A stretch of 64,000 bases of DNA from an uncultured virus (IMG/VR IMGVR_UViG_3300031133_000403) (taxonomy: Duplodnaviria > Heunggongvirae > Uroviricota > Caudoviricetes). A program made the position numbers and the translations under genes. The notes beneath the pieces were generated by a model, which saw only the letters and a list, made by a program, of their open reading frames with translations, did not search any database and was not told where the DNA came from. Positions 60 to 61,899 of this stretch are shown piece after piece. How positions within the stretch are numbered: position 1 is the first letter of the stretch; each line of letters begins with the position of its first letter. The DNA lies in IMG/VR virus record IMGVR_UViG_3300031133_000403; one strand, given 5' to 3'.

Positions 60-659
60 TCATCGGATCTCCACGAGTTCTCCGGGATCCACCACGAGCA
101 TGACGTGCCCCGTCATGTCCCGCACCTGCCTGATGACGGGGTCGTCCGGGAGCCCGTGCCCGATCACGGCCGACAATCGCTTGCCGACGAGAGTCGCCTT
201 GACGCTCTCGGGCAGATCGTGGACCTTGGCGTCCAGCACGTAGTGGAGGTACAGAGGCTCGGTCGCGTCGTATCGGATTCCCGACGCCATCGGCGTGACG
301 CCCGTGAGACGTGGAGCCCGATCGTCCTTCAGGGTCGTGCGCTCGGTCCACCTGTCGCCGTGCACCAGGTCCACGCCGAATCCCAGGCCCAGCTGCGACG
401 CGTGGACGAGACGACGGACGTCCGCGCCGTGCATCCGCAGGATGGCGAGGTGGTTGCGCTCCATCGCGAGCTTCCGGTTGGGCGGACCTTGGCCATCGAC
501 GCCTCGCACATAGGCCTCGATGGTCGCCGCCGTGGAATGGAGCGGCTCCATGCCGAGCGTGCCCGCGACCAGCTGGTTCGTCTCCTGCGTGAACGCGTCC
601 GAACGCGCGCCGGTCAGCTTGGCGTTCCAGCGGCGCAGCGTCACGAGGCTCTCCCGCAT
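60..659 (-). CDS. Hypothetical protein, LPDT-domain paralog family
   Basis: 199-aa ORF; C-terminal HDLPESVKATLVGKRLSAVI matches the recurrent family motif. Confidence 0.7.
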   Translation of the reverse strand: MRESLVTLRRWNAKLTGARSDAFTQETNQLVAGTLGMEPLHSTAATIEAYVRGVDGQGPPNRKLAMERNHLAILRMHGADVRRLVHASQLGLGFGVDLVHGDRWTERTTLKDDRAPRLTGVTPMASGIRYDATEPLYLHYVLDAKVHDLPESVKATLVGKRLSAVIGHGLPDDPVIRQVRDMTGHVMLVVDPGELVEIR

Positions 660-732
660 CCGTCCCGATCCGGGATCGCAATCGTTAATTCGGCGCTTAC
701 CATTCGCCTTTTCCCCATCCTACAATCACGTC

Positions 733-939
733 ATGCGATGGATCGGCCTCTTCAACGTGTGCTACGGTGGGTTGGGCCTGGCGGCCGCCCTCTATCTGGG
801 TCGCCCCGAGGGCGTGGTCCTGTGCGCATGGGTCATGTCCGTCGGCATCGCGATGCGCTTCGCATCGCCGCTCCTGGCGCGATTCAGGTCCGCGCGACGT
901 CGACGTCGCATAGTGTCGAGAGCGCGCGCCGCCTACTGA
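733..939 (+). CDS. Small membrane protein, probably leaderless
   Basis: MRWIGLFNVCYGGLGLAAALYL..., two hydrophobic segments and a basic tail; ATG lies 6 nt after a TACAAT -10-like hexamer (721-726). Confidence 0.5.
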   Translation: MRWIGLFNVCYGGLGLAAALYLGRPEGVVLCAWVMSVGIAMRFASPLLARFRSARRRRRIVSRARAAY

Positions 940-1208
940 GGGGCCGTCGCGCGCAGCCGCTTCGGCATGTGCCCTTCCGGAACGACGACGCCGTGCAGAT
1001 CGCGCATTCCCCGCGTGAACGTCTCCCAGTCCGAGACCGTCGTCATGCCGTGCGTGCAAAGCAGGCACTCGCCCAGACCGGCGATCTGGTCCGTCATGCT
1101 GCGATGGATGTCGATGCCCATCATGCCGAATCGACCGATGCAGCTGCCGTCGACCGCCTCGGCCACCCACACGGTGCGCCCGTCGCTTTCGATGCCCGCG
1201 GTCTTCAT
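933..1208 (-). CDS. Hypothetical protein
   Basis: MKTAGIESDGRTVWV...CLLCTH; ATGA overlap with the upstream gene. Confidence 0.6.
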   Translation of the reverse strand: MKTAGIESDGRTVWVAEAVDGSCIGRFGMMGIDIHRSMTDQIAGLGECLLCTHGMTTVSDWETFTRGMRDLHGVVVPEGHMPKRLRATAPQ

Positions 1209-1402
1209 GCGCGACCACCCGTGTACAGCCGCGCCGCATGTCCCATGCATCGTCGGACGTCCGCCTCGGCGGCGTCGGGATGCGATCTCCAGACGACGTC
1301 GGCGATGTCGCAGGCCCGCGTGTCTTCGTCCGCCGCCCGCAAAGCGCGCACCACCGTCTCGGTCATGGCGAGATCGTCGCCCGGCACGTCACGCGCGTTC
1401 AT
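1205..1402 (-). CDS. Small hypothetical protein
   Basis: MNARDVPGDD..., translationally coupled on both sides. Confidence 0.5.
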   Translation of the reverse strand: MNARDVPGDDLAMTETVVRALRAADEDTRACDIADVVWRSHPDAAEADVRRCMGHAARLYTGGRA

Positions 1403-2211
1403 CCCGCCGATTTCGGCACGGGGCCCGTTCCTTGCGTCCATTGGGCGAGTTCCTCGACTGTGAAGTAGCCATGATTGTTGCGTCGGCCGTCGACGGGATT
1501 GAGCCAGAAGATCACGGGATGCACCGTGTCGGAGCGTCTGTCCTGCGGGGTCCACCGCGGCGACAGCGCCATGTAGGGCCTGATCGACATGTGCGCGACG
1601 CGCATTTCCGCCAGCTTCAGCTCGATGCCGGTCTCCAGCGCGGCGTTCGTCAGGGCCCGTCTGTCGGCCTGCGCCGCGTCGAACGTCGCGATGAGCGGGG
1701 CCGGCACCAGCGACGGCCGCGCGATGACGAGTCCACCTCGCGCGAAGGGGTTCGGGTTCGATCCCATCCAGATGGCGATGTCCCGATCGCGCACGCCTTG
1801 GTGGATCGTCTCGATGTGCCTGGCGGCATCGCCGTAGCCTACGACCGCCAGGGCGTCCGGGCCCCAGGCGCCGATCAGCGAGGTTTCCGCGTCGTACCTG
1901 TGCAGCAGGCCGTCGACATGGCCCGCTCCCTCCTCGTCCATGATCATGGCCATTCCGTCGTCGACGACTTTGCGGCGGCCCTCGCGTCGCTCGCTGCGGT
2001 GCGGACGCAGCCTGAGGCGGTCGCTCGCGTCCCATGCGGCGGTGTGGGCGGCGAAGTCGCCATCGCCGCCCGTCATGCCGAGCGTGGAATGCACGCGTCG
2101 CAGCGGCATTTCGTGATCGGCGGTGTATGATCCGGCGAGCACCAGCCCGTACACGACGCCGCCGTCCTCGAGGAACGCGTTCTCCGCGGTGTTCGATCTC
2201 TTCAAGTCCAT
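1399..2211 (-). CDS. Hypothetical protein
   Basis: MDLKRSNTAEN...; normal globular composition; ends FWLNP...GYFTVEELAQW. Confidence 0.7.
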   Translation of the reverse strand: MDLKRSNTAENAFLEDGGVVYGLVLAGSYTADHEMPLRRVHSTLGMTGGDGDFAAHTAAWDASDRLRLRPHRSERREGRRKVVDDGMAMIMDEEGAGHVDGLLHRYDAETSLIGAWGPDALAVVGYGDAARHIETIHQGVRDRDIAIWMGSNPNPFARGGLVIARPSLVPAPLIATFDAAQADRRALTNAALETGIELKLAEMRVAHMSIRPYMALSPRWTPQDRRSDTVHPVIFWLNPVDGRRNNHGYFTVEELAQWTQGTGPVPKSAG

Positions 2212-2669: not shown

Positions 2670-2680
2670 GTGCGGGTTCC

Positions 2681-3292
2681 TCAGTGCATGGGCCGATGCG
2701 ATGCGATCTGCTCTATGGTGAGTGACGGGCGCTTTCCCTCCAGCACGATCATCGTGTCGGTGTCGTGCCATGTGTCCACCCTCGATATCCGCAGATCGAA
2801 TCGGTCCAGCACGGAATGCCGCACCAGCTGCGTGAGTGGTCCCGTCTCTATGCTTCCCACGAGGCTTTCGGGAAGCTCCACGTCGATCTGCCCCTTGAAT
2901 CGCCAGTGCACGCCGCTGCCGAGCTTGAGGTGGCTGCGCGACCAGTCGTCCGAGTCCAGGCCCGCGTGCGCGCCAGCTTCGTCCTCCTCGTCCTGGCCGG
3001 GAGTCAGCAGGAGCACGTAGGACGCGTGGATCGCCAGCGCGGCGACGGCGAGGGGGTCTATGCCCTGGGATGCCAGCAGCGCGGCGTCGATCTCCGACAT
3101 TCCCGGCGGCTTCCTCTCGCGCTGGAGTCGGGTGATCAGCCTGTCGCGTATTGAATCGTGTCGCCCCGACAGCGCCTCCCGTATCTGCGTCATGCCTTCG
3201 TCGGGTCCCGTCGAGTAGATCGCGAAGATGTCGTCGGTGCGCGACATGGCGCTGATGGCGTCGTAGCTCGTCGCGTCTATGCGCAGATCCAT
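2681..3292 (-). CDS. Hypothetical protein, LPDT-domain paralog family
   Basis: ELPESLVGSIETGPLTQLVRH motif; upstream IDAALLASQGIDP. Confidence 0.65.
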   Translation of the reverse strand: MDLRIDATSYDAISAMSRTDDIFAIYSTGPDEGMTQIREALSGRHDSIRDRLITRLQRERKPPGMSEIDAALLASQGIDPLAVAALAIHASYVLLLTPGQDEEDEAGAHAGLDSDDWSRSHLKLGSGVHWRFKGQIDVELPESLVGSIETGPLTQLVRHSVLDRFDLRISRVDTWHDTDTMIVLEGKRPSLTIEQIASHRPMH

Positions 3293-4194
3293 CAGGATTC
3301 CCTTTTCCGGTACATGGCGTGAGCCACCACCCGCGCTTCCTCGATCTCCATCTCGGGGAACTTGGCTCCATCGGTGTCCCGCACGTCGAGCCGCACCCAG
3401 TCGCGGCCTCGTGATCCGGGCGTGGACGTGTTGCGTCCGATGCCGACGATGTCCATCTCGTCGAAGCCCGGGATCTCGACGACCTGTCCCAGACGCCGGC
3501 GCTGCTTGCCGAGGATCGCCAGGCGCACCGTTTCCGGCAGGTTGGGTATCTCGATCCCGTCGGAGCGCATCTCGACGCCGTCGTGCGTGAACGCGGTCGT
3601 GATCCGCCCCTCGCTCGTCTTGACGATCCTCACCCCGCGGTAGCGCGTCGTCCCGCCCCTGAAGACCGTGTCCACGATCCGGTCGAGGTCTTCGGGTCCG
3701 TCGGCGGCGAGGGCGAGCGTCATGGCGCCGAGGCTGCTCAGCGTGTGGCCTTCGGAATCGAGCCGCCGGTTGCGCGCTATGCGGCGAAGTTCGCGCGCGA
3801 CGTCCTCGTTCTCGTCGATGCGCATCGTCACGCGGCCGATGCCCGCGGCGGTGAAGGACACCTCCGGTTCCCGGTCCGCCTCGTGCACCACCAGATCGAG
3901 GTCCTCGATGTTGCCGTGGCTTTCCAGAGCCGCGAGATGCGCGTCCACCGTGGCTGCCGAGACCGCGCCGTAGTGTCCCAGGTCGATGTTCTGGAGGGCG
4001 CCCATCACGGTCGGCTCGTCGAAGCCGATGTAGACGTCGAAGGGAGGACCCTCGCGCTGGCCCTTCACGTGCAGCATGATCTTGTCCGCCGTCCGGGGAC
4101 CCGAGTCCAGCACCGCTATGGAGCAGCCCTCGACCCACGGCAGCGCTCTGGTGGCCGCGTCGGTCTCGTCCGTCTGGATGCGTCTGATCTGCAT
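3292..4194 (-). CDS. Hypothetical protein, LPDT-domain paralog family
   Basis: NLPETVRLAILGKQRRRLGQVVEIPGF motif. Confidence 0.7.
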   Translation of the reverse strand: MQIRRIQTDETDAATRALPWVEGCSIAVLDSGPRTADKIMLHVKGQREGPPFDVYIGFDEPTVMGALQNIDLGHYGAVSAATVDAHLAALESHGNIEDLDLVVHEADREPEVSFTAAGIGRVTMRIDENEDVARELRRIARNRRLDSEGHTLSSLGAMTLALAADGPEDLDRIVDTVFRGGTTRYRGVRIVKTSEGRITTAFTHDGVEMRSDGIEIPNLPETVRLAILGKQRRRLGQVVEIPGFDEMDIVGIGRNTSTPGSRGRDWVRLDVRDTDGAKFPEMEIEEARVVAHAMYRKRES

Positions 4195-5598: not shown

Positions 5599-6156
5599 TC
5601 AGGGCAGCAGTCTCCACGGCAGTTCCACGCGTTCGTGGCATGCGGTCAGGCCGATGACGGTTCTCACCGGCGTATCGGCCTCCGGGTCCTCGACCCGCTC
5701 GCACGTGGTGACGACCGCCCCCGTCAAGGCGGCATGCGTCAGGACCATGCCGACGTCCCTGCCCGGCAGCACCGCCATCATGGTCGCAGGCATGGCGGTC
5801 GGCATCATGACCATCGCGTCGTCGTTCCTCGATGCGGGATGCCGATGCTCGTCGCCCTTCATCTGGTACGTCACGCCCCCGCCGATGTTCACTCTGTCGA
5901 AGATCGTGTGCGCTCTTCCGTCCGATCTGACCACCAGGGTCAGCTTGGAGAACCACGCCCCCGAAGGCGAGGCTCCGACCGTCTGGCGCCATGTGGCGAA
6001 CGCGACGTCCTCGCCGGGTACGACCCCGTCCTCCACCAGACGCAGCTGATGCAGCCATTCCTCGGGGTGCCAACCGGCCTGGCGCAGACGCCATGCGGCC
6101 ACCGTGTCGAAATCGATCGCGTCGAACATTCCGGGGGCCTCCCGTCCGGTCGACAT
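5599..6156 (-). CDS. Hypothetical protein, LPDT-domain paralog family
   Basis: AMPATMMAVLPGRDVGMVLTH motif. Confidence 0.65.
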   Translation of the reverse strand: MSTGREAPGMFDAIDFDTVAAWRLRQAGWHPEEWLHQLRLVEDGVVPGEDVAFATWRQTVGASPSGAWFSKLTLVVRSDGRAHTIFDRVNIGGGVTYQMKGDEHRHPASRNDDAMVMMPTAMPATMMAVLPGRDVGMVLTHAALTGAVVTTCERVEDPEADTPVRTVIGLTACHERVELPWRLLP

Positions 6157-7994: not shown

Positions 7995-8921
7995 TCACGC
8001 CGCCCGCAGCACGCGTCCCATGCGTTCGACGTACTCGTTCCACAGGTGCATGGGGCGAGGCGCGAAGCAGTCGACGTGCACGATCGCCTTCGCGTGCAGA
8101 TCGCGGCCGCGCGGCGTCACCGCGTAGTCCTCCCGCCTCGTGCCCGGAATCGTCGGCAAGGCGGCGATCATGCCGAACCGCAGCAGGATGTTGCGCGCGT
8201 CCGACGAGGCCGACGCGCTCACCGTCCCGCATGCGCTCTCGATGTGCGTATGGCCGCCCTGGAAGTAGAGCCTGTGGTTCATGGCGCCGTCGAGCGCCAT
8301 GAGTACCATGACGCTCATGCCGTGGCTGGCGGCGTCGGTGTGGCGGCCGAACCTCCCCATCGTGCATATGTCGACGGGACACGGGTTCCATGTCATCAGA
8401 CGCTCGCCGTGCGGGTTGACGTAGGCTTCGACGTCGACCGTGCGCTGGTAGACGTCCATCGCGACGTCGCCTTCGAATTCCGGGTCGGCCGGCCTGTGCT
8501 CGCGGGTCCAGACCTCCGTCGGATAGTCCGGGCGATCCTCGCCCGCGGCGTGGTGGCGTCTATCCTTGACCGGCACGACGACGATGTCGCCGTCGCGGTG
8601 GAACGATTCGTCCAGGCGCATGGCGACCATTGCGTTCTCCGCGGACGCGAAGCGCCATTCCAGTCGCCCGAGCTCCGTCGCGACGAGGCGCCGGCGACCC
8701 CGCGCCGGGTCGGCCTCGAGATCCCCTTCGGCGTCCATGAGGAACCCTTCGTCGACCAGCGCCTGGAGCCGCGCAGGATCGAATTCGAGGCGCGTCCGCG
8801 TTCCGCGGCTGTAGCCGACGCGTTCCCTGCCGTACTTGTTGAGATGCGTGTGCGTGGTGGTCCGCAGGACCGTCTGCTCGGCCACGCGCATCGCGATCAG
8901 GTCGTCGATCGTCGGGATCAT
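7995..8921 (-). CDS. Hypothetical protein
   Basis: MIPTIDDLIAMRV... 308-aa ORF coupled to upstream gene. Confidence 0.65.
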   Translation of the reverse strand: MIPTIDDLIAMRVAEQTVLRTTTHTHLNKYGRERVGYSRGTRTRLEFDPARLQALVDEGFLMDAEGDLEADPARGRRRLVATELGRLEWRFASAENAMVAMRLDESFHRDGDIVVVPVKDRRHHAAGEDRPDYPTEVWTREHRPADPEFEGDVAMDVYQRTVDVEAYVNPHGERLMTWNPCPVDICTMGRFGRHTDAASHGMSVMVLMALDGAMNHRLYFQGGHTHIESACGTVSASASSDARNILLRFGMIAALPTIPGTRREDYAVTPRGRDLHAKAIVHVDCFAPRPMHLWNEYVERMGRVLRAA

Positions 8922-9349
8922 GCCGCATGTCCTTGTCCAAGTGGTTGCACGCCGATGCAGGTGTCCGTTCCCGTGGCGTGCGACGTCACGCTGCTCCACG
9001 TCATCTCCATGGCGTCGGCACCCGGTATCTCGACGAGATCCGAAAGGCGTCGCCCCCTCGACCATATGAGCATGGACTCCGACACGGCGGTGCCTTCGAG
9101 ACGCATGCAGGCGCCGGCCGCGTCGATGTCGTACGTGACGGTCCGTCCGGGTGCGGGCGAGTACCAGCGTATCGATCCGCAGCTGGTCGAGTCGAGGATG
9201 ATCGACGGCATGCCGTCCTTCTCCGAGCGTACGCATTCCATGGTGGACATCTCCTCGGGCTCCCACGGGAGCGCCTCCATGTCCAGACCATGCTGGGCGA
9301 TGGCGGCGGCCACGACGGGATCGCAGGAGAATCTGTCTTCGGGTCGCAT
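8918..9349 (-). CDS. Hypothetical protein, LPDT-domain paralog family
   Basis: DPVVAAAIAQHG...AVSESMLIWSRGRRLSDLVEIPGAD. Confidence 0.7.
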   Translation of the reverse strand: MRPEDRFSCDPVVAAAIAQHGLDMEALPWEPEEMSTMECVRSEKDGMPSIILDSTSCGSIRWYSPAPGRTVTYDIDAAGACMRLEGTAVSESMLIWSRGRRLSDLVEIPGADAMEMTWSSVTSHATGTDTCIGVQPLGQGHAA

Positions 9350-9392: not shown

Positions 9393-9827
9393 CTATCCGG
9401 CGCATCCTGCGGACCGCGCGACCTGGATCCTCGTGTCGTATTCGTCAAAGGACGTGCGCCGGCTGTTCACCACCTGCTCGACGCGCATGGCATCCGCACC
9501 TTCGACGTCGATCGTCTCCGACAGAAGCGTCCCGATCATCGCGGTCATCATCGTGTCCGGCGTCTCGTGGGAGATGATCGTCATGATGCTCATGTCGGGA
9601 TCCACCGTGTAGGTCGCCACCTGCCGCATGTCCCGCGACCAGTTGATCACGACCCGGCCCTCGTCGTTGACGTAGACCGAGGGATGGTCGCGGGTCGCGT
9701 GGATCGAGACCTCCTTGCATCCCGTTTCGAAGTTCTCCTCGCGAGACGCGGTTTCCGGCGTGAGACCGTGACGCCTCAGCGCTCCGACGACGATCGGATC
9801 CGCCAGGGCCTCGTCGATGGCGTTCAT
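9393..9827 (-). CDS. Hypothetical protein, LPDT-domain paralog family
   Basis: DPIVVGALRRHG...ETPDTMMTAMIGTLLSETIDVEGAD. Confidence 0.7.
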   Translation of the reverse strand: MNAIDEALADPIVVGALRRHGLTPETASREENFETGCKEVSIHATRDHPSVYVNDEGRVVINWSRDMRQVATYTVDPDMSIMTIISHETPDTMMTAMIGTLLSETIDVEGADAMRVEQVVNSRRTSFDEYDTRIQVARSAGCAG

Positions 9828-12155: not shown

Positions 12156-12908
12156 TCAGCCGGTGCGCATCGCCGTGTCCATCATCCAGTCCGACGGCGG
12201 ATCCGCGAGGATGTTGGGGATCTCCCCCAGGCGGACGTAGGATGGTCCGTCCAGCAGGAGCGTCATGGCCAGACCCTCGAACTTGTCGTCGTACCGGGCC
12301 ACGTGAAGCCCCATGCCGTCGGTCAGCGGCGACGACACGATCGCGTCCAGAGGCGTGTCGCGCACGAGTCCCGAGACCATGTCGGGCAGCGACCGTCCTA
12401 TGATCGTGATGTCGTTCTCCTCGCTGTCCCACATGTAGTCCTCGGTGAGCATGAACGTCGGCAGCAGGTCGAAGCCCCGTTCTCGTCTCACCGCCTCGGC
12501 GCACTCCATCTTCAGCCCCCGCAGAGGGCCGGCGTGCAGTACGATGCCGGGCAGTTCGAGTTGCGCGAGCACCGCGAAGCAGAGTGGGTTCAGCCCGAGC
12601 GTCGCCATTCTCCTGACGACGGACAGCGGCATCCGCGCGTTCGGCATGTCGATCCGCGTGAAGGCGGCCATGCGGCTCGTCAGGATGCGCTTCGAGGTCT
12701 CCGCGTCTATTGACAGGCACCCGACGACGGCGCGTTCCACGCAGTCGAACGCCTCGTACCTCTCATCGTCGCCCATGTCCGTGAATTCGTGCGTCGCGAT
12801 GGGCACGTCCAGCATGTCGAGCAGCGCTTGGCGCTTGCGGGGGCCTTCGTCGAGCAGTTCCTCGAGGCGCTTCGTGGCTTCGCTGAGGGCGGGTCCGTGT
12901 TCGATCAT
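12156..12908 (-). CDS. Hypothetical protein, LPDT-domain paralog family
   Basis: SLPDMVSGLVRDTPLDAIVSSP motif. Confidence 0.65.
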   Translation of the reverse strand: MIEHGPALSEATKRLEELLDEGPRKRQALLDMLDVPIATHEFTDMGDDERYEAFDCVERAVVGCLSIDAETSKRILTSRMAAFTRIDMPNARMPLSVVRRMATLGLNPLCFAVLAQLELPGIVLHAGPLRGLKMECAEAVRRERGFDLLPTFMLTEDYMWDSEENDITIIGRSLPDMVSGLVRDTPLDAIVSSPLTDGMGLHVARYDDKFEGLAMTLLLDGPSYVRLGEIPNILADPPSDWMMDTAMRTG

Positions 12909-16647: not shown

Positions 16648-17637
16648 TCAATGCGTCGCGGACAGCCATCCCTCCGAGATCACGCCTCGGTTCGCCATCG
16701 ACGCCCACGTCCCCGGCGTCGCCGCCTCCGCGCGCGCCATGGTCTCGCGCAGCAGGGGGCCGAACGGTTCGGTCGTCGGTTTGGTGGTGACGCGTATCGT
16801 CCTGGCTTGGCGCGACGTCGTGGTGATGACCGCGTCCGTCGGCAGGAGATCGTGCCGCAGCAGATCGGACAGCGGTCTGCCCCTCAGCGCCGTCAGCACC
16901 GTGTCCGGCATGTCGGACCTGATGCTCAGCACGCCGCGGTTCCACGTCATGCCGTCGGGCAGGTTCACCGCGCGTGCCAGCACGCCGTTCCTGAAGTGCG
17001 GGAAGTCCGGCGTGTTGCAGTCCGCCAAGCCGTTCACCAGCATGTCGCACCACGTCGTCGGGTTCCATGCCGTGCGCACGCGTGTCGCCAGCACCGGACA
17101 CACGGTCAGAACGTCCTCCCGGCATCCGCCTTCCAGCATTGCTCGTCGGCGGCGCTGCTCGGTGACGAGTCGTCGCAACCCCCCGTCGATCGTGGTCTCG
17201 TGCGGCCTGAACGTCATGTGCGTCCTTCTGTGGCGCAGCGAGTCGCTCAGCAGATCGGCATGGACGGAGAATCGCATGAAGCCGTCGCGCTGGCCGTCCA
17301 TGTGGTCGTGCAGATGCACGGTCACCGGTCCTCGCGAATAGGGGCCCAGCACGTCCTGCATGCGTTCCTGCGCCTTCGTCGTCTCGTGCCGCAGGATGAC
17401 CCGGTGCTTGTGATGGGACGCCATCGCGTTGACGACGCCTCGCACCCCCGCGTCCTCCGTGCATTCCGTCACCAGCCCGTTCAGGTCGGTGACGAGAAGC
17501 GCCGTGCGGTGCTTCGGGTGCGATGGCGCCGTGCGTTCGACTCCGGCAAGGCCGAACCGCAGACCCCGGTGGGCGATCAGTTCGGCGACGTCGTGTTCGA
17601 ATTCCTCCCGTCCGCCGTTCGCCATGCCCGTCTCCAT
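16648..17637 (-). CDS. Hypothetical protein, LPDT-domain paralog family
   Basis: DMPDTVLTALRGRPLSDLLRHDLLP motif. Confidence 0.7.
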   Translation of the reverse strand: METGMANGGREEFEHDVAELIAHRGLRFGLAGVERTAPSHPKHRTALLVTDLNGLVTECTEDAGVRGVVNAMASHHKHRVILRHETTKAQERMQDVLGPYSRGPVTVHLHDHMDGQRDGFMRFSVHADLLSDSLRHRRTHMTFRPHETTIDGGLRRLVTEQRRRRAMLEGGCREDVLTVCPVLATRVRTAWNPTTWCDMLVNGLADCNTPDFPHFRNGVLARAVNLPDGMTWNRGVLSIRSDMPDTVLTALRGRPLSDLLRHDLLPTDAVITTTSRQARTIRVTTKPTTEPFGPLLRETMARAEAATPGTWASMANRGVISEGWLSATH

Positions 17638-18038
17638 CAGTTCCGCAGATCGGCGAGCCGCCATCCCCGCGTCCGCGCCGGGGGCCCGTCCATCGACAGC
17701 ACCACCTTCACCATGCTCGCCAATCGTGCCAGCTTGCGTTCGTACTCATCGTCCTCGAGCGCCTCCGGACGGAAGTCGCGCAGGATGAGCACGTACGTCA
17801 GATCCGACGACACGGCGTGTCGCACCGTCCTGGAGAGCGGGCTTTCCGGGTGTTCCAGATCGTTGAGGTTCATGCGCGGCGCCTCGAGCTTCTCGACCCG
17901 CCAGTCGAGCGCCTCCGCGATTTCCTGCACCGCACTGGTGACGTCCATCGGCCCCGACTGCATGGCGATGGTGCCCTGGTGCGCGTGGCGTCCCTGCAGC
18001 ATCGCCGCCAGAAGGCGGATCGCATTTCTGTTCTGCAT
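17637..18038 (-). CDS. Hypothetical protein
   Basis: 133-aa ORF coupled to downstream gene. Confidence 0.55.
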   Translation of the reverse strand: MQNRNAIRLLAAMLQGRHAHQGTIAMQSGPMDVTSAVQEIAEALDWRVEKLEAPRMNLNDLEHPESPLSRTVRHAVSSDLTYVLILRDFRPEALEDDEYERKLARLASMVKVVLSMDGPPARTRGWRLADLRN

Positions 18039-18051: not shown

Positions 18052-18513
18052 TCAGGGGTTCGTTGGTGGCGCGAGCGTGAACGTGTGCTGTCCGTCGATC
18101 GCGCTGTGCTCGGTCGATGCGATCATCCAGTCGCCTAGGCCGGGGAGGTCGATCACGTCCAGCAGGGGTCGCCCCTGCGATGCGGCCGCTAGCGTATCGG
18201 GCAGGAGCTCGTCCATGATCGACACCCGCGCGACGCCGTCCTGTCGCCAGTACGTGATTTCGCCCGATGTGCCGAACCAGGCGTGGACGTGCAGGTCGCG
18301 TTTGGGGCCCGTCCGTTCGCCGGTCGAGATGCTCCGCGCGAACAGCTCCCGCAATCCGCAGGGAGCTCCGGTGCCGTAGTTGAGTCTGATTTCGCGTCCG
18401 CTCTTCGGGATGACGATGTCGTCTCCCTGCATGGCGGCGATCGCCGCGACCAGCGCGTCGTCCATGGCCCGGTGCGTCGGTGTCAGCTTCTTCAAGCTTT
18501 TCCTCCTCCGCAT
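18052..18513 (-). CDS. Hypothetical protein, LPDT-domain paralog family
   Basis: LLPDTLAAASQGRPLLDVIDLPGL motif. Confidence 0.7.
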   Translation of the reverse strand: MRRRKSLKKLTPTHRAMDDALVAAIAAMQGDDIVIPKSGREIRLNYGTGAPCGLRELFARSISTGERTGPKRDLHVHAWFGTSGEITYWRQDGVARVSIMDELLPDTLAAASQGRPLLDVIDLPGLGDWMIASTEHSAIDGQHTFTLAPPTNP

Positions 18514-41937: not shown

Positions 41938-42351
41938 CTATGCCTTCTTCATCGGCATCGCGTCGTCCACGACGATCAGCGTTCTCTTGGGATCGATGAG
42001 CGCGGCCGTGCCCGGTCCGAAGGTCCGGTCGATCTTCTCGGCGTGCTCCAGCAGTCGCGCGACCGTGACGCGTCCCTCCTCGAAGAAGCTCTGCACCCAG
42101 TAGCCCCGCGCCGTCACCGCCGTGAGGTGCGCGGGCGAATAGACGTGCCCGAAGCCCCGTATGCCGGCTGCGGGCCTCATGTGGCCCTTGAACCAGGCCA
42201 GGCGCGCGTTGATCTCGTTGCCCCGCCGCAGCTCGACCAGCACGTGCGCGCTCGATCCATGGTCGACACCGCCCATCCCGGGTTCGTGTCGGGCCTGCAC
42301 GATGCGATCCTCGTACCAGTGGCGTCGCGGACTGGTGGCGTTCTCGGTCAT
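41938..42351 (-). CDS. Hypothetical protein
   Basis: MTENATS... GAGGAG RBS. Confidence 0.55.
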   Translation of the reverse strand: MTENATSPRRHWYEDRIVQARHEPGMGGVDHGSSAHVLVELRRGNEINARLAWFKGHMRPAAGIRGFGHVYSPAHLTAVTARGYWVQSFFEEGRVTVARLLEHAEKIDRTFGPGTAALIDPKRTLIVVDDAMPMKKA

Positions 42352-46204: not shown

Positions 46205-46972
46205 TCAAAGTACTAGTATGTTGCCAACTCTCACGTTGTCAGAAGCAAGTCTAAACCAAGTGTGACCTGAATCTCCATCAGGTGTTTCGGCTGTTAATAT
46301 ACGACGATTGTCGAGTGCAGGAATGATGCTCGCGACTTCACCGAGTCTGCGTCCCGCCACGTGCATCAGCACGCTCTGCGGCAGTTCCTGGGGAAGCACC
46401 AGCATGCAGCCGGTCATCTCCATCGATCCGATGCGCACGCTCGGACTGATCACCGTGCCCTTCAGCGCGTGCAGGTGACGCAGACCGCCGTTGGCGTGCC
46501 GCACGGCGTCTCGCAGTTCGTCCGCCACCGCCCACGTGTCGCCGCCGTGCCTGTCGAGCAGCATCTGCAGCCCGGCGCGATCGCATTTCAGATGGCCTAT
46601 CTCGGTCAGGGGCCCGTCGCCTTCCGGCAGCCGCACGTCGCGCAGCGCGAAGGGGTGGTGCGACCCGTGCCGGATCCCCTCTTTGCGACGCGAGCGCTGC
46701 GACGTCGCGAACCTCTCGATGTCCTCCTCCGGCGCATCCACGTCTCTGATGGTCACGAGCTGCACGACGCCGTGCAGGCTGGCGCTCCAGCCATGCATGA
46801 GCAGGTGCGCCCCCTTCAGGATCCTCGGATGCGCGTGGCGTCCCGTTGCGGACGCGCGCGCCATCGTCCGGCGCGTCTCGGCGCGTATCACCTCCACGCC
46901 GCCTATGCCCGACAACGTGCGTCGTCCGATCTCGGCGATGCGCTCGAGTTGCGCCACGCTTGGTGCGTTCAT
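46205..46972 (-). CDS. Hypothetical protein, LPDT-domain family (GWSxSLH subfamily)
   Basis: HGWSASLH; ELPQSVLMHVAGRRLGEVASIIP; 3' end AT-rich. Confidence 0.7.
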   Translation of the reverse strand: MNAPSVAQLERIAEIGRRTLSGIGGVEVIRAETRRTMARASATGRHAHPRILKGAHLLMHGWSASLHGVVQLVTIRDVDAPEEDIERFATSQRSRRKEGIRHGSHHPFALRDVRLPEGDGPLTEIGHLKCDRAGLQMLLDRHGGDTWAVADELRDAVRHANGGLRHLHALKGTVISPSVRIGSMEMTGCMLVLPQELPQSVLMHVAGRRLGEVASIIPALDNRRILTAETPDGDSGHTWFRLASDNVRVGNILVL

Positions 46973-52498: not shown

Positions 52499-52527
52499 AT
52501 CATGCTTCACCGCGCGCCGTGCGTCAA
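52499..52527 (-). promoter_or_regulatory. Sigma70-like promoter for the tRNA pair
   Basis: Minus-strand TTGACG-N17-CATGAT. Confidence 0.6.
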
Positions 52528-53303
52528 GGTGCTAATTCACCACGGGCCACCATGGCGTCCAGATGCGCGCCGATCCGCACCCTGTTCGGGATCATGTCCA
52601 CGGTCAGCAGCGGATGGAGTTCGTCGTCCTCGACCCTCGCCGACAGGATCGTCCGCTTCGCCAGAGTGGCAGGGACCGCGATCAGATCGCCAAGCGATCT
52701 CCCCTCCAGCGTGACGGCCATTGTCTCCGGCATGCGTCTGGCGACGAACAGTCGATCGTCGTCCAGCGCCACGTCGTGGTGGAGCATGATCCGCCGTCCG
52801 TACACGAGGTGGTTCAGCCAGCCGCCGTTGCCGTCGCCGTCAGTCACGTCGTACACGCTCCGACCGATCTCGTACCGCGCATCCGTCGCGCTGCCCTGCT
52901 CGAGCGCTATGGTCTCCAGCGAGTGGAGATCCTGCATCAGGTGCTCCACGGTCATGACGCCATCCTTGCCGTCGAGAAGCCCCCACGGCGTCACGCGCCC
53001 CGGGTCCAGATCCCACGCCTCCTTGACGAGTCGCCGCTGTCGCGAGGCGAACGCCGTGATCGCCGGCCGTGAATTCTCCACGGCCGCACCGATCGACAAC
53101 GCTCTGGCGAAACGGCAATGCACCTTCATCACGTGCCTGTGCAGACTGCCCGTCCAGCCTTCTATCTGCAGGGCCACGTCGGCGATTCCGGTGGCGTGAT
53201 CGTCCTCTTCGACCATCGCCCGAAGCACGCTCACCGCCGGGATGCCGTGCAGCAGCGTCCGCGCCTCGTCGATCAACGCGTTTCTGATCCTCGAACCGAT
53301 CAT
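52524..53303 (-). CDS. Hypothetical protein, LPDT-domain family (GWSxSLH subfamily)
   Basis: EGWTGSLHRH; RMPETMAVTLEGRSLGDLIAVP. Confidence 0.7.
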   Translation of the reverse strand: MIGSRIRNALIDEARTLLHGIPAVSVLRAMVEEDDHATGIADVALQIEGWTGSLHRHVMKVHCRFARALSIGAAVENSRPAITAFASRQRRLVKEAWDLDPGRVTPWGLLDGKDGVMTVEHLMQDLHSLETIALEQGSATDARYEIGRSVYDVTDGDGNGGWLNHLVYGRRIMLHHDVALDDDRLFVARRMPETMAVTLEGRSLGDLIAVPATLAKRTILSARVEDDELHPLLTVDMIPNRVRIGAHLDAMVARGELAP

Positions 53304-54177: not shown

Positions 54178-54609
54178 CTACCAGCCCTCGGGGAGGGTCA
54201 GGATTATCTCGGTCGTCTCGTCGTCCGCGGAATACGGCCTGACCGCCCTTATCGGCAGATGGCCGACATGCGGCATGTCCACCAGAGCTCCGCAGGGCCT
54301 GCCCACCGCTCCGGCCATCACCGTGTCGGGGAGCAGCATGGGCACGGTTATGATGGCGTGTCCCGTGTGTGCACGACGGTACTCGTAGTCGCCGAAGCGT
54401 CCGAAGTATATGATCATGACGCCGTGCCACGACCCGTCGCCGCACAGGTAGCTGAACAGCGGCATGCCCGGCAGATCCTCGCTCACCCCGTCGTTGCCCC
54501 ATTCCGTGCCTGGTTCGAACGAGGATGGGACGTCGCTCCTCTCCATCCCCCTCTCCGACGCCAGGGCCGCGAAGAGCCCGTCGTCGAAGGGGTTGGACAG
54601 ATGGCCCAT
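54178..54609 (-). CDS. Hypothetical protein, LPDT-domain paralog family
   Basis: LLPDTVMAGAVGRPCGALVDMP. Confidence 0.7.
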   Translation of the reverse strand: MGHLSNPFDDGLFAALASERGMERSDVPSSFEPGTEWGNDGVSEDLPGMPLFSYLCGDGSWHGVMIIYFGRFGDYEYRRAHTGHAIITVPMLLPDTVMAGAVGRPCGALVDMPHVGHLPIRAVRPYSADDETTEIILTLPEGW

Positions 54610-58144: not shown

Positions 58145-59068
58145 TCAGAAGCCCTGCTCCTCGCGCTTCTTCTCGACCCAGTCGACGAATGCTCCGTGCG
58201 TCGTGTATTCCGCGCCGAACGGCAGTCCTCCCCGCACCAGTCCCGGAAGCATCATGATTGTCCAGCCGATGAACATGCCCTTCAATGCGCCCATCGCGAA
58301 GCTCCAGGCGGTCGTCAGGACCTCCGCCGCCGATGCGGGATGGGCTAGCGTGAGGCCCGCCAGTATCACGGCGCACACGCCGGCCATGATCACCGACGTC
58401 TTGACCGCGACCGGCACGGCGTACTTCATGAAGACGCCGACGCTCGCCCTGTCGCTCCACGCCATCGCCAGTGGGTGCCACAGCGCCCGTAAGCCCCTTC
58501 CCCCCAGAGGCACCGGCGCCGCGTCCGTGCGGATCATGTCGTGGTCGTCGTCGTTGTATCCGGCGTTCGTGCAGAAGTCCCCGTCGTACGAGTTCTCCTC
58601 GACGTCCGTGATGCCGGCATCCGGTGGCAGGAGTGGATGGTCGATCAACGCGGAGACGGGTCGTCCCGGCAGCAGTTCGATCACGGTCTCCGGTATCTGC
58701 ACGCCGCGTCTGGAGATGCGCAGATTACCCCCGCACCAATGCATGCCGTACGCCACGTTCACCGTTCCGACCAGCATTCCGTCGTACGTCACGGCCGCGT
58801 TGCCCGTCGTGATGCGTCCGATGCGCCGCACCGCCCGCTTGTCGCCCCGAACCACGCTGCGGTGGAGACAGGCGACCTCCCTCGACGTCACGCCCGCCTC
58901 GGCGAGCACCTTCATCAGCACGGGGTCGATCGTCGCGGGCTTGGCGAGGATCCGCCCCTGCATGTCCCGCGTCGACTTCCACACCCGCAGCTTGGTGGCG
59001 AGGCGTCTGCCGCGCGCGCGCAGGGCCTCCATACGTCGGTGCACGTCGAGATTCTGAAGCGTCACCAT
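58145..59068 (-). CDS. LPDT-domain family protein with C-terminal TM helices
   Basis: DPVLMKVLAEAG; QIPETVIELLPGRPVSALIDHPLLP; hydrophobic C-terminal segments. Confidence 0.7.
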   Translation of the reverse strand: MVTLQNLDVHRRMEALRARGRRLATKLRVWKSTRDMQGRILAKPATIDPVLMKVLAEAGVTSREVACLHRSVVRGDKRAVRRIGRITTGNAAVTYDGMLVGTVNVAYGMHWCGGNLRISRRGVQIPETVIELLPGRPVSALIDHPLLPPDAGITDVEENSYDGDFCTNAGYNDDDHDMIRTDAAPVPLGGRGLRALWHPLAMAWSDRASVGVFMKYAVPVAVKTSVIMAGVCAVILAGLTLAHPASAAEVLTTAWSFAMGALKGMFIGWTIMMLPGLVRGGLPFGAEYTTHGAFVDWVEKKREEQGF

Positions 59069-59994
59069 TGCGCGGGCATTGGCTGCATGAAGTCCTTCAT
59101 CGTCAGCGCTACGCCGGCACGGCCCTGCTTGGAAACTGCGGTCTGCGAGGTGATCCTCATGTCCCCGTCGAACAGCCTGTGCTCGATGAGCGAGCCGAAC
59201 CGCTGCCCCGTGCAGCCGGTCAGGACCACGTCCGGCAGCGGCGCCTCGAGGATCGTCAGCCCGCCCTTCGACCAGACGAACCCGACGCCCTGCGCCTCGG
59301 TCGTGAACGAGCCGCGCACCCTGGTTCTGGCGAAGTCGACGTCGATGTTCTCGACGAGCTGCTTCCTGCTGCCCGAGCGGCCCTCGATCGTCTCGTCGCC
59401 ACGGTCGTACAGCGCGCTCCTGTCGCCGATCGCGAGGCGCCTCAGCACCATGCCCGCCTTCGAGCCGTACCGCTCCCGCAGGGCCGCAGCGAGTGGACGT
59501 TCGATCTCCATGTGCGACAGATCGACCTCGTCTGGCTTGAACAGTCGCGCCGTGCCGCGCGTCGCCGCGTGGTCGGCCTGCACTCCGATCAGCCTGGCGA
59601 ACCTGCCCCTGACCATCCGGTCGATCTTCTCATCCGACAGAACCTGCATGTACGTCTTGCGGGGCAGACGCAGCTCGTGCTTCTCCAGCCCTCCCACGCC
59701 GTACGAACGCCATTGCAGCAGCGTCACGTCGAACACTTCGCCGTACCGGATCTCGACCTTCTCGACGACCACGGGCGAGCCCGCCTCCTCGACCATGGCG
59801 CGCACCGAACGCTCTACGATCTCGAGCTCGCGTGCTTCGTGCTTCTCCCGTTCGATCTGATGAGGCGACTTCCTGTGCGCCGTCTGCCGCGCGGCCTCGA
59901 TGATGGACGACATCAGGGTGTCCACCATGGAGGACTTCGGCGCCGGGGTGGTCAGCGCGATGGCACTCCGCAGCAGTCTGGTCTTCTTCGTCAT
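59062..59994 (-). CDS. Hypothetical protein, LPDT-domain paralog family
   Basis: PLPDVVLTGCTGQRFGSLIEH. Confidence 0.7.
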   Translation of the reverse strand: MTKKTRLLRSAIALTTPAPKSSMVDTLMSSIIEAARQTAHRKSPHQIEREKHEARELEIVERSVRAMVEEAGSPVVVEKVEIRYGEVFDVTLLQWRSYGVGGLEKHELRLPRKTYMQVLSDEKIDRMVRGRFARLIGVQADHAATRGTARLFKPDEVDLSHMEIERPLAAALRERYGSKAGMVLRRLAIGDRSALYDRGDETIEGRSGSRKQLVENIDVDFARTRVRGSFTTEAQGVGFVWSKGGLTILEAPLPDVVLTGCTGQRFGSLIEHRLFDGDMRITSQTAVSKQGRAGVALTMKDFMQPMPAQW

Positions 59995-60054
59995 GTCGCA
60001 CCTTTCATCCGTCCGACGCTCGTCGTCGCGTCTTTTCCCCCTGGGGAACGTTCT

Positions 60055-60561
60055 CTATGCCGTCTGCCACCCATCGGGCCGCCATGTGGGCACGTCCAGC
60101 TCCAGTCTCACGTCGCGCTCGGCGAGGGGTCTGCGGATCCCTCCCGTGTTCATCGCTTCCACGACGACCGCTTCCGCTATGATGCGCGGCAGCGATTCGG
60201 CGATCTCCACGATTTCCGCCACGCGTCTTCCGACCATCGCCGCCAGCATCGTCTGCGGCAGCACGGTCGCCGAAAGCCAGAGCGTGGACATCTGGTACGA
60301 CATTCCCGGAGAGATCTGCAGATGCGCCGTGGCCCCGGGCATGGCGTCCTGGCGCACGATCAGCGTTCCGCATGGCAGATGCGCTTCGACGACTTCGTCG
60401 ACGCGGTTCTCCCGTCGCGCCTCCGCCGCTTCCTCCGCCAGTCGAAGCGCCTCCTGCACGAAGCCGTCCGGTGCCATTTGGAGCAGATGGAGCGTTCCGA
60501 TGCAGCCCCCGGTCATGCGCAGCATCGCCTGCTCGATCGTTGTGGATTCCCGCTTCGGCAT
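60055..60561 (-). CDS. Hypothetical protein, LPDT-domain paralog family
   Basis: VLPQTMLAAMVGRRVAEIVEI. Confidence 0.65.
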   Translation of the reverse strand: MPKRESTTIEQAMLRMTGGCIGTLHLLQMAPDGFVQEALRLAEEAAEARRENRVDEVVEAHLPCGTLIVRQDAMPGATAHLQISPGMSYQMSTLWLSATVLPQTMLAAMVGRRVAEIVEIAESLPRIIAEAVVVEAMNTGGIRRPLAERDVRLELDVPTWRPDGWQTA

Positions 60562-60730
60562 TGTTGTTCTCCGCTCGTTCCGTACCTGTTCGACCTCGTC
60601 GTTGCTCCAGGTCAATCGATGAACGCATCGACATGGAACCACTGCGCCACCTTGGGACTTGGCGTCGTGCGTTGTCGGAGATTCAGGATGGTTGTCCTAC
60701 GGCGCGTCATCGTGTTTCGGAGTTCAAGTG

Positions 60731-61003
60731 ATGTTGGCTGACGGTTTGGATCTGAGCGACGTGGACGTTGCGCCCGAGACGGACATCGTCTCGATGACGA
60801 GGGCCATGGCCAAGGTCAGGGACGTGCTTGGCGTGACGCAGAGCGATGCGCGCGCCGCGGTGTCCCACAAGCTCCCGGGCGGCGTTCTGCCGGACGTGAG
60901 TCTGGCCCAGCTCGAGGCCCTGGCGTCGGCCGGCAACGCCCGCGTCTGCGTGACCATCGAGACCGAAGACGGCCGCACGCTCAATCTCGCCCATCTCGTC
61001 TGA
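60731..61003 (+). CDS. Small putative XRE-like HTH protein
   Basis: R..LGVTQ...VSLAQLEALA...G..V.VTIE pattern. Confidence 0.45.
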   Translation: MLADGLDLSDVDVAPETDIVSMTRAMAKVRDVLGVTQSDARAAVSHKLPGGVLPDVSLAQLEALASAGNARVCVTIETEDGRTLNLAHLV

Positions 61004-61017
61004 CGTCCGCTCGCGAT

Positions 61018-61899
61018 TCAGCGTGCGTGCCGTGCCATCCACTCCTCCAGCCAGGCGGTGTCGATGCCCTCGGGTGCCGTGGCGAGTGGTTCCAGCCCGC
61101 ATGACACGGTGATCACGAGCGCCTCGTCGGTCTGGAAGGCGTCGCGTATCGGCGCGTCCCCCGCCGCCGTGCCCGGCTCCAGCCCGGGGAAGGCGACGAT
61201 GCGTGACAGCGGCTGGCCCGGAAGCCCCGCGGTCATCGTGTCCGGGTAGGTCCCCACGATCCTGATGCGCGCCATGTCGTTCGCGGCGTCGATGCTGAAT
61301 CTGCATCCCGCATGCGACAGGCGCACGCCGGTGTGCGAAAGTCTCAGGTCGTGCACCGAGGCGCTGATCTTCACCTCCGGCTGCCAGTCGGCGCGGTCCA
61401 GCGGACGGTAGGTGGAAGGGTCGGCCACCAGAGCCGCTATCACGCCGCGCATCACCGGATGACCGATGAACGCCCATGCTGGAGGAGACGAGGGCTTGCC
61501 ACCGGCCTGCAGGATGGCCTGGTTGCGACGCCTCGCGATCGAGGACAGATCGGCCAGCTTCGCGCCCGCCTCCAGGATCTCCTCCCGCGTCGCGGTGCGC
61601 AGGGGCGTCTTGCCGCTCGCTCTCGCGCCCACGTCGATCGTGAACAGCCGCTCCATGATGCCCATCTGCCGATCGACCGACACTTGGTACAGCCCGGGCG
61701 TGCTCGTCGCGGCGAGACGGACCGTTCCGTCGTGCCCCAGATCGTGCATGGTCTGCCGCAGGGCCCGCAGATGCTCCCGGCGTTCGGTCTCCCAATCGCG
61801 TCTCCCGCGTATGACCGCGATCGTCGCGGCCGCCCTGTCGGCACGCTGCGACTTCATGGCCTCCCGCATTGCCGCCGAAATCGGTGCTCGTCTGGCCAT
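61018..61899 (-). CDS. Hypothetical protein, LPDT-domain paralog family
   Basis: TYPDTMTAGLPGQPLSRIVAFPGL. Confidence 0.7.
   Translation of the reverse strand: MARRAPISAAMREAMKSQRADRAAATIAVIRGRRDWETERREHLRALRQTMHDLGHDGTVRLAATSTPGLYQVSVDRQMGIMERLFTIDVGARASGKTPLRTATREEILEAGAKLADLSSIARRRNQAILQAGGKPSSPPAWAFIGHPVMRGVIAALVADPSTYRPLDRADWQPEVKISASVHDLRLSHTGVRLSHAGCRFSIDAANDMARIRIVGTYPDTMTAGLPGQPLSRIVAFPGLEPGTAAGDAPIRDAFQTDEALVITVSCGLEPLATAPEGIDTAWLEEWMARHAR

Follow-up and report, generated by a model that had tools for sequence, protein, structure and literature searches.

Nineteen diverged copies of a previously undescribed domain, candidate cytoplasmic binding modules, in a 64-kb window of a putative giant accessory or phage-like replicon

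Results

Nineteen minus-strand ORFs encode one domain family

Nineteen minus-strand open reading frames (ORFs) of the window, which here means the whole 64-kb stretch of DNA that was analysed, constitute one real and previously undescribed domain family, for which a role as a diversified set of binding modules is tentatively proposed below. An earlier note on this DNA had described 19 minus-strand paralogs of one domain, and all 19 ORFs were found at the stop-proximal coordinates given there. Its upstream limits for 2681, 3292, 26580, and 42348 proved to be those of over-extended first-start ORFs (as with the end at position 4138 for 2681), and GC3-guided starts give proteins of about 203, 300, 270, and 172 aa, respectively. 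SD-like motifs precede most of the family genes. Members are named by their first coordinate, and the E-values in the list were obtained with the external-only profile described below.

60..659, minus strand: 199 aa; domain at about residues 58-190, preceded by a 57-aa N-extension with one relative, P0068; E 1.5e-9
2681..3292, minus strand: about 203 aa, starting MDLRIDAT; divergent type ending in HP/VLD; E 1.1e-5
3292..4194, minus strand: about 300 aa, GC3-guided start; domain C-terminal; E 6.5e-7
5599..6156, minus strand: 185 aa; essentially standalone; E 3.8e-10
8918..9349, minus strand: 143 aa; standalone, in tandem with 9393, 100% identical to P0005; E 1e-23
9393..9827, minus strand: 144 aa; standalone; E 8.3e-26
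12156..12908, minus strand: 250 aa; weakest member, probably a divergent copy; E 5e-4
16648..17664, minus strand: 338 aa; 148-aa N-extension, good alignment for the C-terminal half of the domain only; E 5.2e-12
18052..18513, minus strand: 153-aa ORF, standalone; database form P0001 of 147 aa; E 3.7e-22
26580..27392, minus strand: 270 aa; N-terminal 'GWSPSLH' domain followed by the family domain; E 3.5e-13
27389..28171, minus strand: about 253-260 aa; N-extension of about 100 aa in common with P0012; E 1.5e-20
42348..42866, minus strand: 172 aa; near-standalone, GTG start as in P0007 (97% identical); E 1.1e-21
46205..46972, minus strand: about 255 aa; two-domain type; E 1.3e-8
52524..53303, minus strand: about 259 aa; two-domain type, N-domain in the 26580 cluster; E 7e-8
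54178..54609, minus strand: 143 aa; standalone; E 1.3e-24
58145..59068, minus strand: 307 aa; domain and 140-aa C-extension with a TM-like segment; E 8.2e-16
59062..59994, minus strand: 310 aa; 160-aa N-extension; E 2.4e-8
60055..60561, minus strand: about 168 aa; near-standalone; E 5.7e-10
61018..61899, minus strand: 293 aa; 139-aa N-extension; E 2.6e-11

The 754 six-frame ORFs of the window and 754 reversed decoys were searched with a profile built from 145 domain stretches of 142 non-window proteins (external-only profile); the search that yielded these proteins had used a profile made from 8 sequences of the window, and the contig of the window itself encodes one or more of them (P0020). 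The 19 ORFs took the top 19 places among 1,508 entries with E-values from 8e-26 to 5e-4, 17 of them lying between 8e-26 and 6.5e-7, followed by 2681 (1e-5) and 12156 (5e-4). The best decoy appeared at 0.091 and the next real ORF at 0.092, and a 20th member was not detected by this profile among the six-frame ORFs of the window. When 6 window sequences were used as seed against the same 754 ORFs and 754 decoys (window-seeded profile), the first iteration added 8 further candidates, the total reached 17 from the second iteration, and no decoy or plus-strand ORF appeared at E<=10. After convergence and with filters off, the 17 ORFs were found at E<=4e-13, followed by 12156 (0.073), the first decoy (0.85), and 2681 (0.89). 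Another profile placed 12156 at 0.0047, and this ORF is probably a divergent family copy. The ORF at 2681 was missed by the window-only profile and is matched by P0143 (phmmer, 1.2e-4) and by ORF2 of the metagenome locus L046 (8.9e-5).

Chance recurrence of a motif is excluded by the decoy controls. Reciprocal profile matches were significant with decoys controlled, and neither the lack of a common fold nor the known Pfam domain that the earlier note had named, beside a failure of such matches, as grounds for abandoning the family was observed. As the 19 members stand among about 80 genes obtained by a crude GC3-guided call on the window (about 24%), the estimate that they make up roughly a quarter of the genes stands.

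A constant element, a variable sheet, and three architectures

In the domain, which comprises about 135 aa, a helix (DPxhxAAhxxHG) lies on the N-terminal side; next come a beta-sheet of about 5 strands, variable and poorly conserved in sequence, and a constant element (LP[DE]T..G[RK]PL..hh.hPG), in which a strongly conserved helix-turn, LP[DE]T..AL.G[RK]PL.[DE]hh[DE].PG, is followed by two strands. Accordingly distributed conservation was observed, with 3 positions above 1.6 bits in residues 31-100 (P60, V76, and Y88) and 24 such positions in residues 97-134. The motif proposed earlier was found in part, its core [LMI]P[DEAQ][TS] being present in 14/19 ORFs and off by one position in 8918, 9393, 12156, 59062, and 61018; the full regular expression is too strict, because it matches literally in 3/19, and the underlying homology is real. 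The upstream helix D[PR]xhxxxhxxxG, also noticed earlier, recurs across the family with D19 at 70%, P20 at 54%, H29 at 46%, and G30 at 73%.

Conserved positions are mostly hydrophobic core residues, Pro, and Gly, and G114 is invariant in the family alignment. The few conserved polar residues are D19, H29, E/D106, T107, R115, D119, and D122, the last five being conserved at 39-80% in 164 aligned stretches. The conserved positions of the family alignment contain no enzyme signature and no Cys/Ser/His triad. Window domains have a median pI of 4.9 (11/19 below 6), and standalone copies carry a net charge of -7 to -17. A signal-like N-terminus was detected in 1/142 non-window members, on which basis a secreted family was rejected, and the acidic domain copies are predicted to be cytoplasmic.

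Three architectures recur, namely the standalone domain, an N-terminal partner followed by the domain, and the domain followed by a TM anchor. As had been noticed before, some window members are nearly the domain alone (7/19 with N- and C-extensions below 50 aa), while others carry variable N-terminal extensions (11/19) or a C-terminal TM anchor (58145). The N-domain of 26580 clusters with 17 non-window proteins and with 52524, and 46205 aligns by BLAST with both 26580 and 52524 over about 155 aa. Among the 142 non-window members, 9 have a C-extension of at least 50 aa (7 of these with 1-2 TM-like windows) and 3 are tandem two-domain proteins; a dedicated search for longer fused forms returned none, which is weak evidence. 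Domain-only forms account for 94 of the 142, and therefore the domain must be more than the cargo tag that one suggestion of the earlier note had made of it; the adaptor part of that suggestion is a possible logic, since one half of the domain is constant and the other variable.

The domain has no match among known families and solved structures

In agreement with the earlier statement that the domain was not recognised, Pfam hits above curated cut-offs were obtained for 0/19 window and 0/59 non-window members. NCBIfam matched 0/25 members, PHROGs 0/19, and PADLOC 0/18 (in a scan without 2681). Comparison of the family profile with 177,635 distinct PDB sequences gave a best E-value of 0.14. 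The AlphaFold2 model of 18052 reached a pLDDT of 89.1 and a pTM of 0.83, so that the fold of the domain is confidently predicted, on the strength of this model, and is without a clear match among solved structures. A first model (pLDDT 75) had returned no usable match in PDB, BFVD, or VIA-wide, the comparison with BFVD having been made with this model only. In the ESM Atlas, the top score for 18052 was 0.76, under the noise level stated for that resource, and the N-domain of 26580 gave no usable feature match, its structural rows having TM<0.5 with a poor Atlas model. In the accessible parts of the literature, neither the family nor a comparable element of the phyllosphere was found to be described, and nothing was found on the double-wing domain of YdcD.

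Copies appear to be old, and the family recurs beyond the window

The best BLAST hit of each of the 19 window domains lies outside the window (for 27389, 117 vs 47 bits). Judged from this comparison, in which 148 non-window sequences, some of them possibly paralogs from the same replicon, were set against 18 window sequences, the window copies appear to be old paralogs and not a recent burst. Recent tandem amplification was rejected, because for every copy some non-window protein is nearer than any sibling. The family comprises at least 171 sequence clusters; P0166, from other metagenomes, is 75% identical to 27389, L046 encodes 3 members within 4.4 kb, and P0020 lies beyond the window on its 1.27-Mb contig.

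No family match was obtained by tblastn with two members in 50,697 phage records or in 72,556 plasmid records, nor in IMG/VR with two proteins and a motif pattern. Among huge-phage records sharing the NAD/NadE module, the family was present in 0/5, 3 of which are complete. With this absence from the phage records, IMG/VR, and these huge phages, the family is none of the known phage families, and the replicon itself may be no phage. Single-protein scans of viral contigs returned nothing and those of genome contigs returned solely L001, the end of an Opitutus MAG contig; this weak single-protein match was rejected by both family profiles, and the genome was without a match. A degenerate DNA motif pattern, itself absent from the window and hence unable to recover the source contig, retrieved 1 viral and 49 metagenome loci, of which one (L046) encodes the family and the other 49 are chance matches.

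The window lies on a mostly unannotated element

The window belongs to a leaf-metagenome contig of 1.27 Mb that shows alphaproteobacterial features. About 85% of the window is coding, and of its approximately 80 genes, which are mostly without annotation, 69 lie on one strand: Pfam matches at E<0.01 were obtained for 15/45 non-family ORFs (13 above curated cut-offs) and PHROGs matches for 9/61 window ORFs. Genes for NadE, a NadR-like protein, and an isochorismatase have their nearest relatives on viral contigs of 149-517 kb, with 43-52% identity in the case of NadE, and two tandem tRNA-Glu genes are also present. Phage structural, replication, or conjugation genes were not detected in the window with Pfam and PHROGs. 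The PilZ, HWE-type kinase, Ros/MucR, and TerB proteins encoded here would be equally at home on an accessory replicon of a bacterium. A defence island was rejected (PADLOC, 0/41). Contigs from two metatranscriptome runs of different studies cover 30/30 bins of positions 42000-61999, and those of a third run 26/30; coverage by contigs from RNA libraries is no proof of transcription.

Discussion

By analogy, the family may be a diversified set of non-enzymatic cytoplasmic binding modules, carried by a giant replicon of accessory or phage-like type, a reading that we hold tentatively, at somewhat less than an even chance. The N-terminal helix and the constant helix-turn element would serve as an unvarying scaffold, or as a contact site common to all paralogs, and through the variable sheet each paralog would recognise a target of its own. 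With this set, the element would bind factors of the (host) cell and modulate them, and some paralogs would do so as fusions with an effector-like N-domain or while anchored in the membrane. The functional part of this reading draws on anatomy and analogy. For an effector or anti-defence arsenal, as suggested in the earlier note, no counterpart was seen, no defence, secretion, or toxin family having been detected in the window with Pfam, PHROGs, and PADLOC and no PADLOC or PHROGs match to the domain having been obtained.

As roughly one gene in four belongs to the family, in a window that otherwise mostly resists annotation and is represented in metatranscriptome libraries, the role of the family is probably central to the biology of the replicon. 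With a confidently predicted fold and many sequence clusters, but without a Pfam, NCBIfam, or PHROGs model or a solved relative, the family lends itself well to structure determination and to a new entry in domain databases. If the replicon is an autonomous giant element or phage of phyllosphere Alphaproteobacteria, no other feature would mark it as distinctively as this family, through which its strategy of host interaction could be approached directly.

An alternative that we consider unlikely is that the constant LP[DE]T-GR-PG element docks all paralogs on one partner, which could be a polymerase, a protease, or a machine for secretion or packaging, while the variable sheet or the fused N-domain picks clients, as in F-box and other substrate-receptor families. 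Such docking would agree with the division into a constant and a variable half, with the conservation of the exposed-type residues E/D106, T107, R115, D119, and D122, and with the variable N-terminal partners and the membrane-tethered form; however, no candidate machine was found in the window, and the conserved polar residues may be mere helix caps or salt bridges. An extended version of this idea is quite unlikely. In it, the family would supply the substrate receptors of a new adaptor system, docking by this element and the N-terminal helix into one machine of host or element and recruiting clients by the hypervariable sheet or N-domain. The family would at the same time be the signature of a class of replicons, not described so far, in leaf-surface Alphaproteobacteria; these would be extrachromosomal or phage-like, of megabase scale, strand-polarised, and rich in ORFans. 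The strongly conserved polar residues may also lie at a ligand site common to all paralogs, which would speak for a ligand-binder family and against target-specific binders. Phage sponge proteins act against defence signalling, and the conserved T-x6-G-R...D..D site might bind a nucleotide-derived signal, with different paralogs covering different ligands. The small, standalone, acidic members in many copies, the NAD-salvage genes and two PilZ (c-di-GMP-binding) proteins nearby, and the invariant G114, which along with T107 and R115 would be suited to phosphate binding, are compatible with this idea, which we nevertheless regard as very unlikely.

That the copies are an array of diverged small immunity or antitoxin-like proteins directed against polymorphic toxins is less probable still. 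The immunity proteins of the SUKH / SMI1-KNR4 superfamily are small alpha+beta domains with an 'LP...' motif, standalone or fused, forming multi-copy arrays and also found in phages, and the present family would resemble them in these respects; no Pfam SUKH-family match was obtained for the 19 members at E<1 or for 59 non-window members at E<0.01, and no SUKH structure is among the 50 fold matches listed. DNA-binding regulators with a MotA-like double-wing domain in common and differing N-terminal interaction domains are the least probable of these readings. The fold scores of double-wing domains (T4 MotA C-terminal domain, 5jlt and 6k4y; E. coli YdcD, 8wj5) are within the chance range, the 3-8% identity amounts to no sequence similarity, and DNA binding predicts a basic surface whereas the family is acidic, charge being a proxy only. 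Scores for class I type III secretion chaperones (SycN-YscB, 1xkp; Spa15, 2xga) and the chaperone-like DR_1245 (4h5b) are within noise; the window has no T3SS genes and the model of 18052 lacks a C-terminal helix. The reading as binding modules leads to the expanded small-protein families of very large phages and giant mobile replicons, which are thought to modulate host factors. The present alpha/beta family differs from those of giant phages in its absence from every phage collection searched and in that the phage nature of its element is only putative, but it likewise lacks database annotation and likewise consists of many deeply diverged copies of a small domain, dispersed over a large, strand-polarised, ORFan-rich element.

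A shared domain family in the window

All 19 ORFs that the earlier note had assigned to one domain family, named here by their lower coordinate, were found on the minus strand. The set of ORFs was confirmed but the upstream limits of four of them had been drawn too far; as first-start ORFs, 2681, 3292, 26580 and 42348 overrun into adjoining genes, and GC3-guided starts together with database forms give corrected sizes of about 203, 300, 270 and 172 aa, respectively. The core [LMI]P[DEAQ][TS] of the motif described earlier occurs in 14 of the 19 ORFs and is off at one position in the remaining 5, but the full regular expression fits only 3/19, and homology was therefore examined by profiles and decoys, using a search set of 754 six-frame ORFs (≥40 aa) and 754 reversed copies as decoys. 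A profile seeded with 6 window sequences gave 8 more candidates in iteration 1 and a total of 17 from iteration 2, and neither a decoy nor a plus-strand ORF appeared at E ≤ 10 in this iterated search. At convergence and with filters off, 17 ORFs had E ≤ 4e-13, followed by 12156 (0.073), the first decoy (0.85) and 2681 (0.89).

A profile check had been proposed in the earlier note, and an external-only profile of 145 domain stretches from 142 proteins encoded outside the window, which had been recruited by a profile of 8 window sequences and of which at least one lies on the window's own contig, placed the 19 candidates exactly as the top 19. In this search 17 candidates had E-values from 8e-26 to 6.5e-7, followed by 2681 (1e-5) and 12156 (5e-4), while the best decoy was at 0.091 and the next real ORF at 0.092. 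Independently, phmmer tied 2681 to the cluster representative P0143 (1.2e-4) and linked it reciprocally to a member encoded on the metagenome contig L046 (8.9e-5). Eighteen ORFs are firm family members and 12156 is probably a divergent one; no further member was found among the six-frame ORFs (≥40 aa) of the window. The observation of a shared domain family is thereby confirmed and somewhat strengthened.

Comparison with Pfam agreed with the description of the domain as unrecognised, as none of the 19 window members and none of 59 non-window members scored above curated cut-offs. No matches were obtained in NCBIfam (0/25 members), PHROGs (0/19 window members) or PADLOC (0/18 members scanned), the best E-value of the profile against PDB sequences was only 0.14, and Foldseek with a confident model of 18052 retrieved nothing from the PDB at E ≤ 1e-3. 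The family is real and previously undescribed.

Structure and conservation of the domain

The AlphaFold2 model of the 153-aa protein 18052, based on an 80-sequence alignment, is confident (pLDDT 89.1, pTM 0.83) and predicts helices at residues 20-32 and, as a short helix in the LPDT element, 106-111, and strands at 41-45, 54-62, 73-80, 86-91, 94-100, 130-137 and 142-148. Among 164 aligned stretches, conservation is focused on two places, the N-terminal helix (D19 70%, P20 54%, H29 46%, G30 73%) and a C-terminal element comprising L104, P105 (95%), E/D106 (78%), T107 (80%), V108, L112, G114 (98%), R115 (73%, K in 9%), P116, L117, D119, V120, V121, D122, P124 (85%), G125 and I131. Only three positions of the sheet residues 31-100 exceed 1.6 bits in the same alignment, and no catalytic-looking residue set was found among its conserved positions. 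Window domains are mostly acidic, with a median pI of 4.9 (<6 in 11/19, >8 in 5/19), and the median is 5.7 in non-window members, of which only 1/142 has a hydrophobic, signal-like N-terminus. The domain is thereby shown to be compact, cytoplasmic and alpha/beta, to consist of a constant and a variable half, and to lack an enzyme signature.

Architectures and partner domain

Three architectures recur in the family.

Table. Architectures of family members, given as window (of 19); non-window (of 142)
N- and C-extensions both <50 aa: 7; 94
N-extension: 11 (≥57 aa); 39 (≥50 aa)
C-extension ≥50 aa: 1 (58145, 140 aa with one TM-like segment); 9 (7 with 1-2 TM-like windows)
Two tandem domains: 0; 3

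One family accounts for 19 of the 50 N-extensions, those of 26580 and 52524 among them, and the N-part of 46205 is linked to it by BLAST; the other N-extensions are singletons or pairs. The window members of this 'GWSPSLH' N-domain (alignment A4) are:

26580-27392, minus strand, 'GWSPSLH' N-domain
46205-46972, minus strand, 'GWSPSLH' N-domain
52524-53303, minus strand, 'GWSPSLH' N-domain

The N-domain has no match in Pfam, PDB sequences or the ESM Atlas. Its polar residues S53, H57, Q95, R98, H118, D122 and H148, set in the context of a GWSPSLH motif, are near-invariant, a pattern that suggests a catalytic or metal site.

Age and distribution of the copies

When 167 domain stretches were compared all against all by BLAST, every window domain (19/19) scored highest against a protein from outside the window, often far ahead of any sibling.

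Table. Best non-window match versus best window sibling (bits)
27389: 117 vs 47
42348: 119 vs 45
54178: 104 vs 36
8918: 88 vs 35

A FastTree tree of the same stretches gave the same pattern, though most of its forks are unresolved, and a 75%-identical counterpart of 27389 is present in other metagenomes. That all 19 best matches fall outside the window indicates that the copies are old paralogs, whose closer relatives reside in related elements or in other parts of this replicon, and argues against recent local amplification.

A profile of 8 window domains, run against 1.84 billion cluster representatives, retrieved 171 proteins at E ≤ 1e-3, of which 29 reached E ≤ 1e-10. Among the 150 proteins listed, 8 were the window's own or near-identical (85-100% identity), and an LP[DE]T..G[RK]..PG motif is apparent in most of the non-window ones. 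All 20 non-window representatives that were looked up trace to metagenome-type collections (Logan, JGI/IMG, ENA), and for two of their clusters there is an NCBI copy as well; 'hypothetical protein' was the sole name attached to them and their longest contigs ranged from 1 kb to 447 kb. The Logan contigs that carry P0046, P0190 and P0017 measure 447 kb, 202 kb and 143 kb. Searches of IMG/VR for the family found nothing, and tblastn with 18052 and the central member P0032 gave no match in 50,697 phage records or 72,556 plasmid records. The representative P0020 (156 aa, 30% identical to the nearest window ORF) lies outside the window on the window's own 1,270,031-bp contig, and the replicon therefore has at least one further copy, which brings the copy number above 19. 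On L046 (positions 1-4372, 4.4 kb, 70% G+C) three family members flank a DUF1345 membrane protein and an unannotated 300-aa ORF, so clustering is not unique to the window.

The carrier element

Eight of 10 window proteins were found by exact sequence in the collection, all eight on that 1,270,031-bp contig, and window DNA is present in phyllosphere and plant metagenome runs. Between 42000 and 61999, two metatranscriptome libraries, each from a separate study, have contigs covering 30/30 bins and a third has contigs covering 26/30, mostly at 95-99% identity, which is consistent with transcription and strain variation. Such contigs are no proof of transcription, and RNA libraries may include DNA. 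The 64-kb window has a G+C content of about 66% and steadily negative GC and AT skews, and a crude GC3-guided gene call, which includes a few antisense artefacts, places about 80 genes on it, 69 of which lie on the minus strand, at a coding density of 85%. Most family genes are preceded by an SD-like motif. Pfam matches at E < 0.01 are limited to 15 of the 45 non-family ORFs, 13 of these above curated cut-offs, and 9/61 ORFs match PHROGs. The NAD module comprises a glutamine-dependent NAD synthetase (NadE), an isochorismatase-family protein and a NadR-like NMNAT-Nudix protein; other recognisable genes encode DUF5131 (Gp37/Gp68), two PilZ proteins, TerB, an HWE/HisKA_2 kinase, a histidine phosphatase, GNAT and DUF2314, and, on the plus strand, Ros/MucR and DUF805.

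28271-30061, 30181-30966 and 40679-41881, minus strand, NAD-salvage genes
4778-5374, plus strand, Ros/MucR
6817-7338 and 26163-26513, minus strand, two PilZ-domain paralogs
15398-16429 and 43405-44502, minus strand, two unannotated paralogs of about 343-365 aa
19621-23208, minus strand, 1195-aa protein with a signal-peptide-like N-terminus and about 8 repeats of about 115 aa
33954-36892, plus strand, and 37133-40598, minus strand, three-gene module present twice, inverted about ~37,000 (pairs 33954/40101, 34523/38820 and 34973/37133)
52170-52244 and 52265-52339, minus strand, tandem tRNA-Glu genes (anticodons TTC and CTC) within an ORFan-rich block

Every repeat of the 1195-aa protein has conserved Cys and Trp (CWD...C.YLP...WKVRC), its gene has an unusually low GC1 of 0.53, and its CHORD and PHROG matches are sub-threshold only. 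The large proteins of the inverted module carry TSP1_ADAMTS-like repeats, which are unusual for bacteria. One RNA-library contig connects 52247 to 52315, omitting 67 bases between the two similar tRNA-Glu genes.

On IMG/VR contigs of 149-517 kb, NadE has counterparts at 43-52% identity, with NadR-like, isochorismatase and Ros/MucR homologues close by; among isolate phages the identity reaches only about 40%. The domain family is missing from 5/5 of these viral records, of which three are rated complete. Ros/MucR regulators and kinases of the HWE type are characteristic of Alphaproteobacteria, and the best plasmid match of the window kinase is from Methylobacterium (35%). The window showed no defence system (PADLOC, 0/41), nor any conjugation, replication or virion gene. 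The carrier can therefore be described as an accessory or phage-like replicon, or else an island, from a leaf-surface alphaproteobacterium; it is very large, strand-polarised and rich in ORFans.

Possible working of the family and comparison with known systems

Deep paralogy, local clustering, presence in RNA libraries and the three architectures are established observations. We tentatively propose, and hold it possible rather than probable, that the domain is a binding module without enzymatic activity. The constant element would act as a scaffold or a common contact site, and the variable sheet would give each copy a separate target, some copies being joined to an N-domain that may be catalytic, or anchored in the membrane. 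The arsenal or cargo tag suggested in the earlier note is a candidate reading. An adaptor or substrate-receptor logic, with one docking partner common to all copies, is compatible with the domain-only majority because the constant/variable split sits inside the domain, and we regard it as rather unlikely. A small-molecule binder or sponge appears improbable, and immunity proteins are a still poorer candidate; MotA-like DNA binders, against which the acidic charge counts, are very improbable.

Huge phages have the NAD module in common with the window but not the domain family. Expanded families of small proteins are, as a phenomenon, already known from giant elements.
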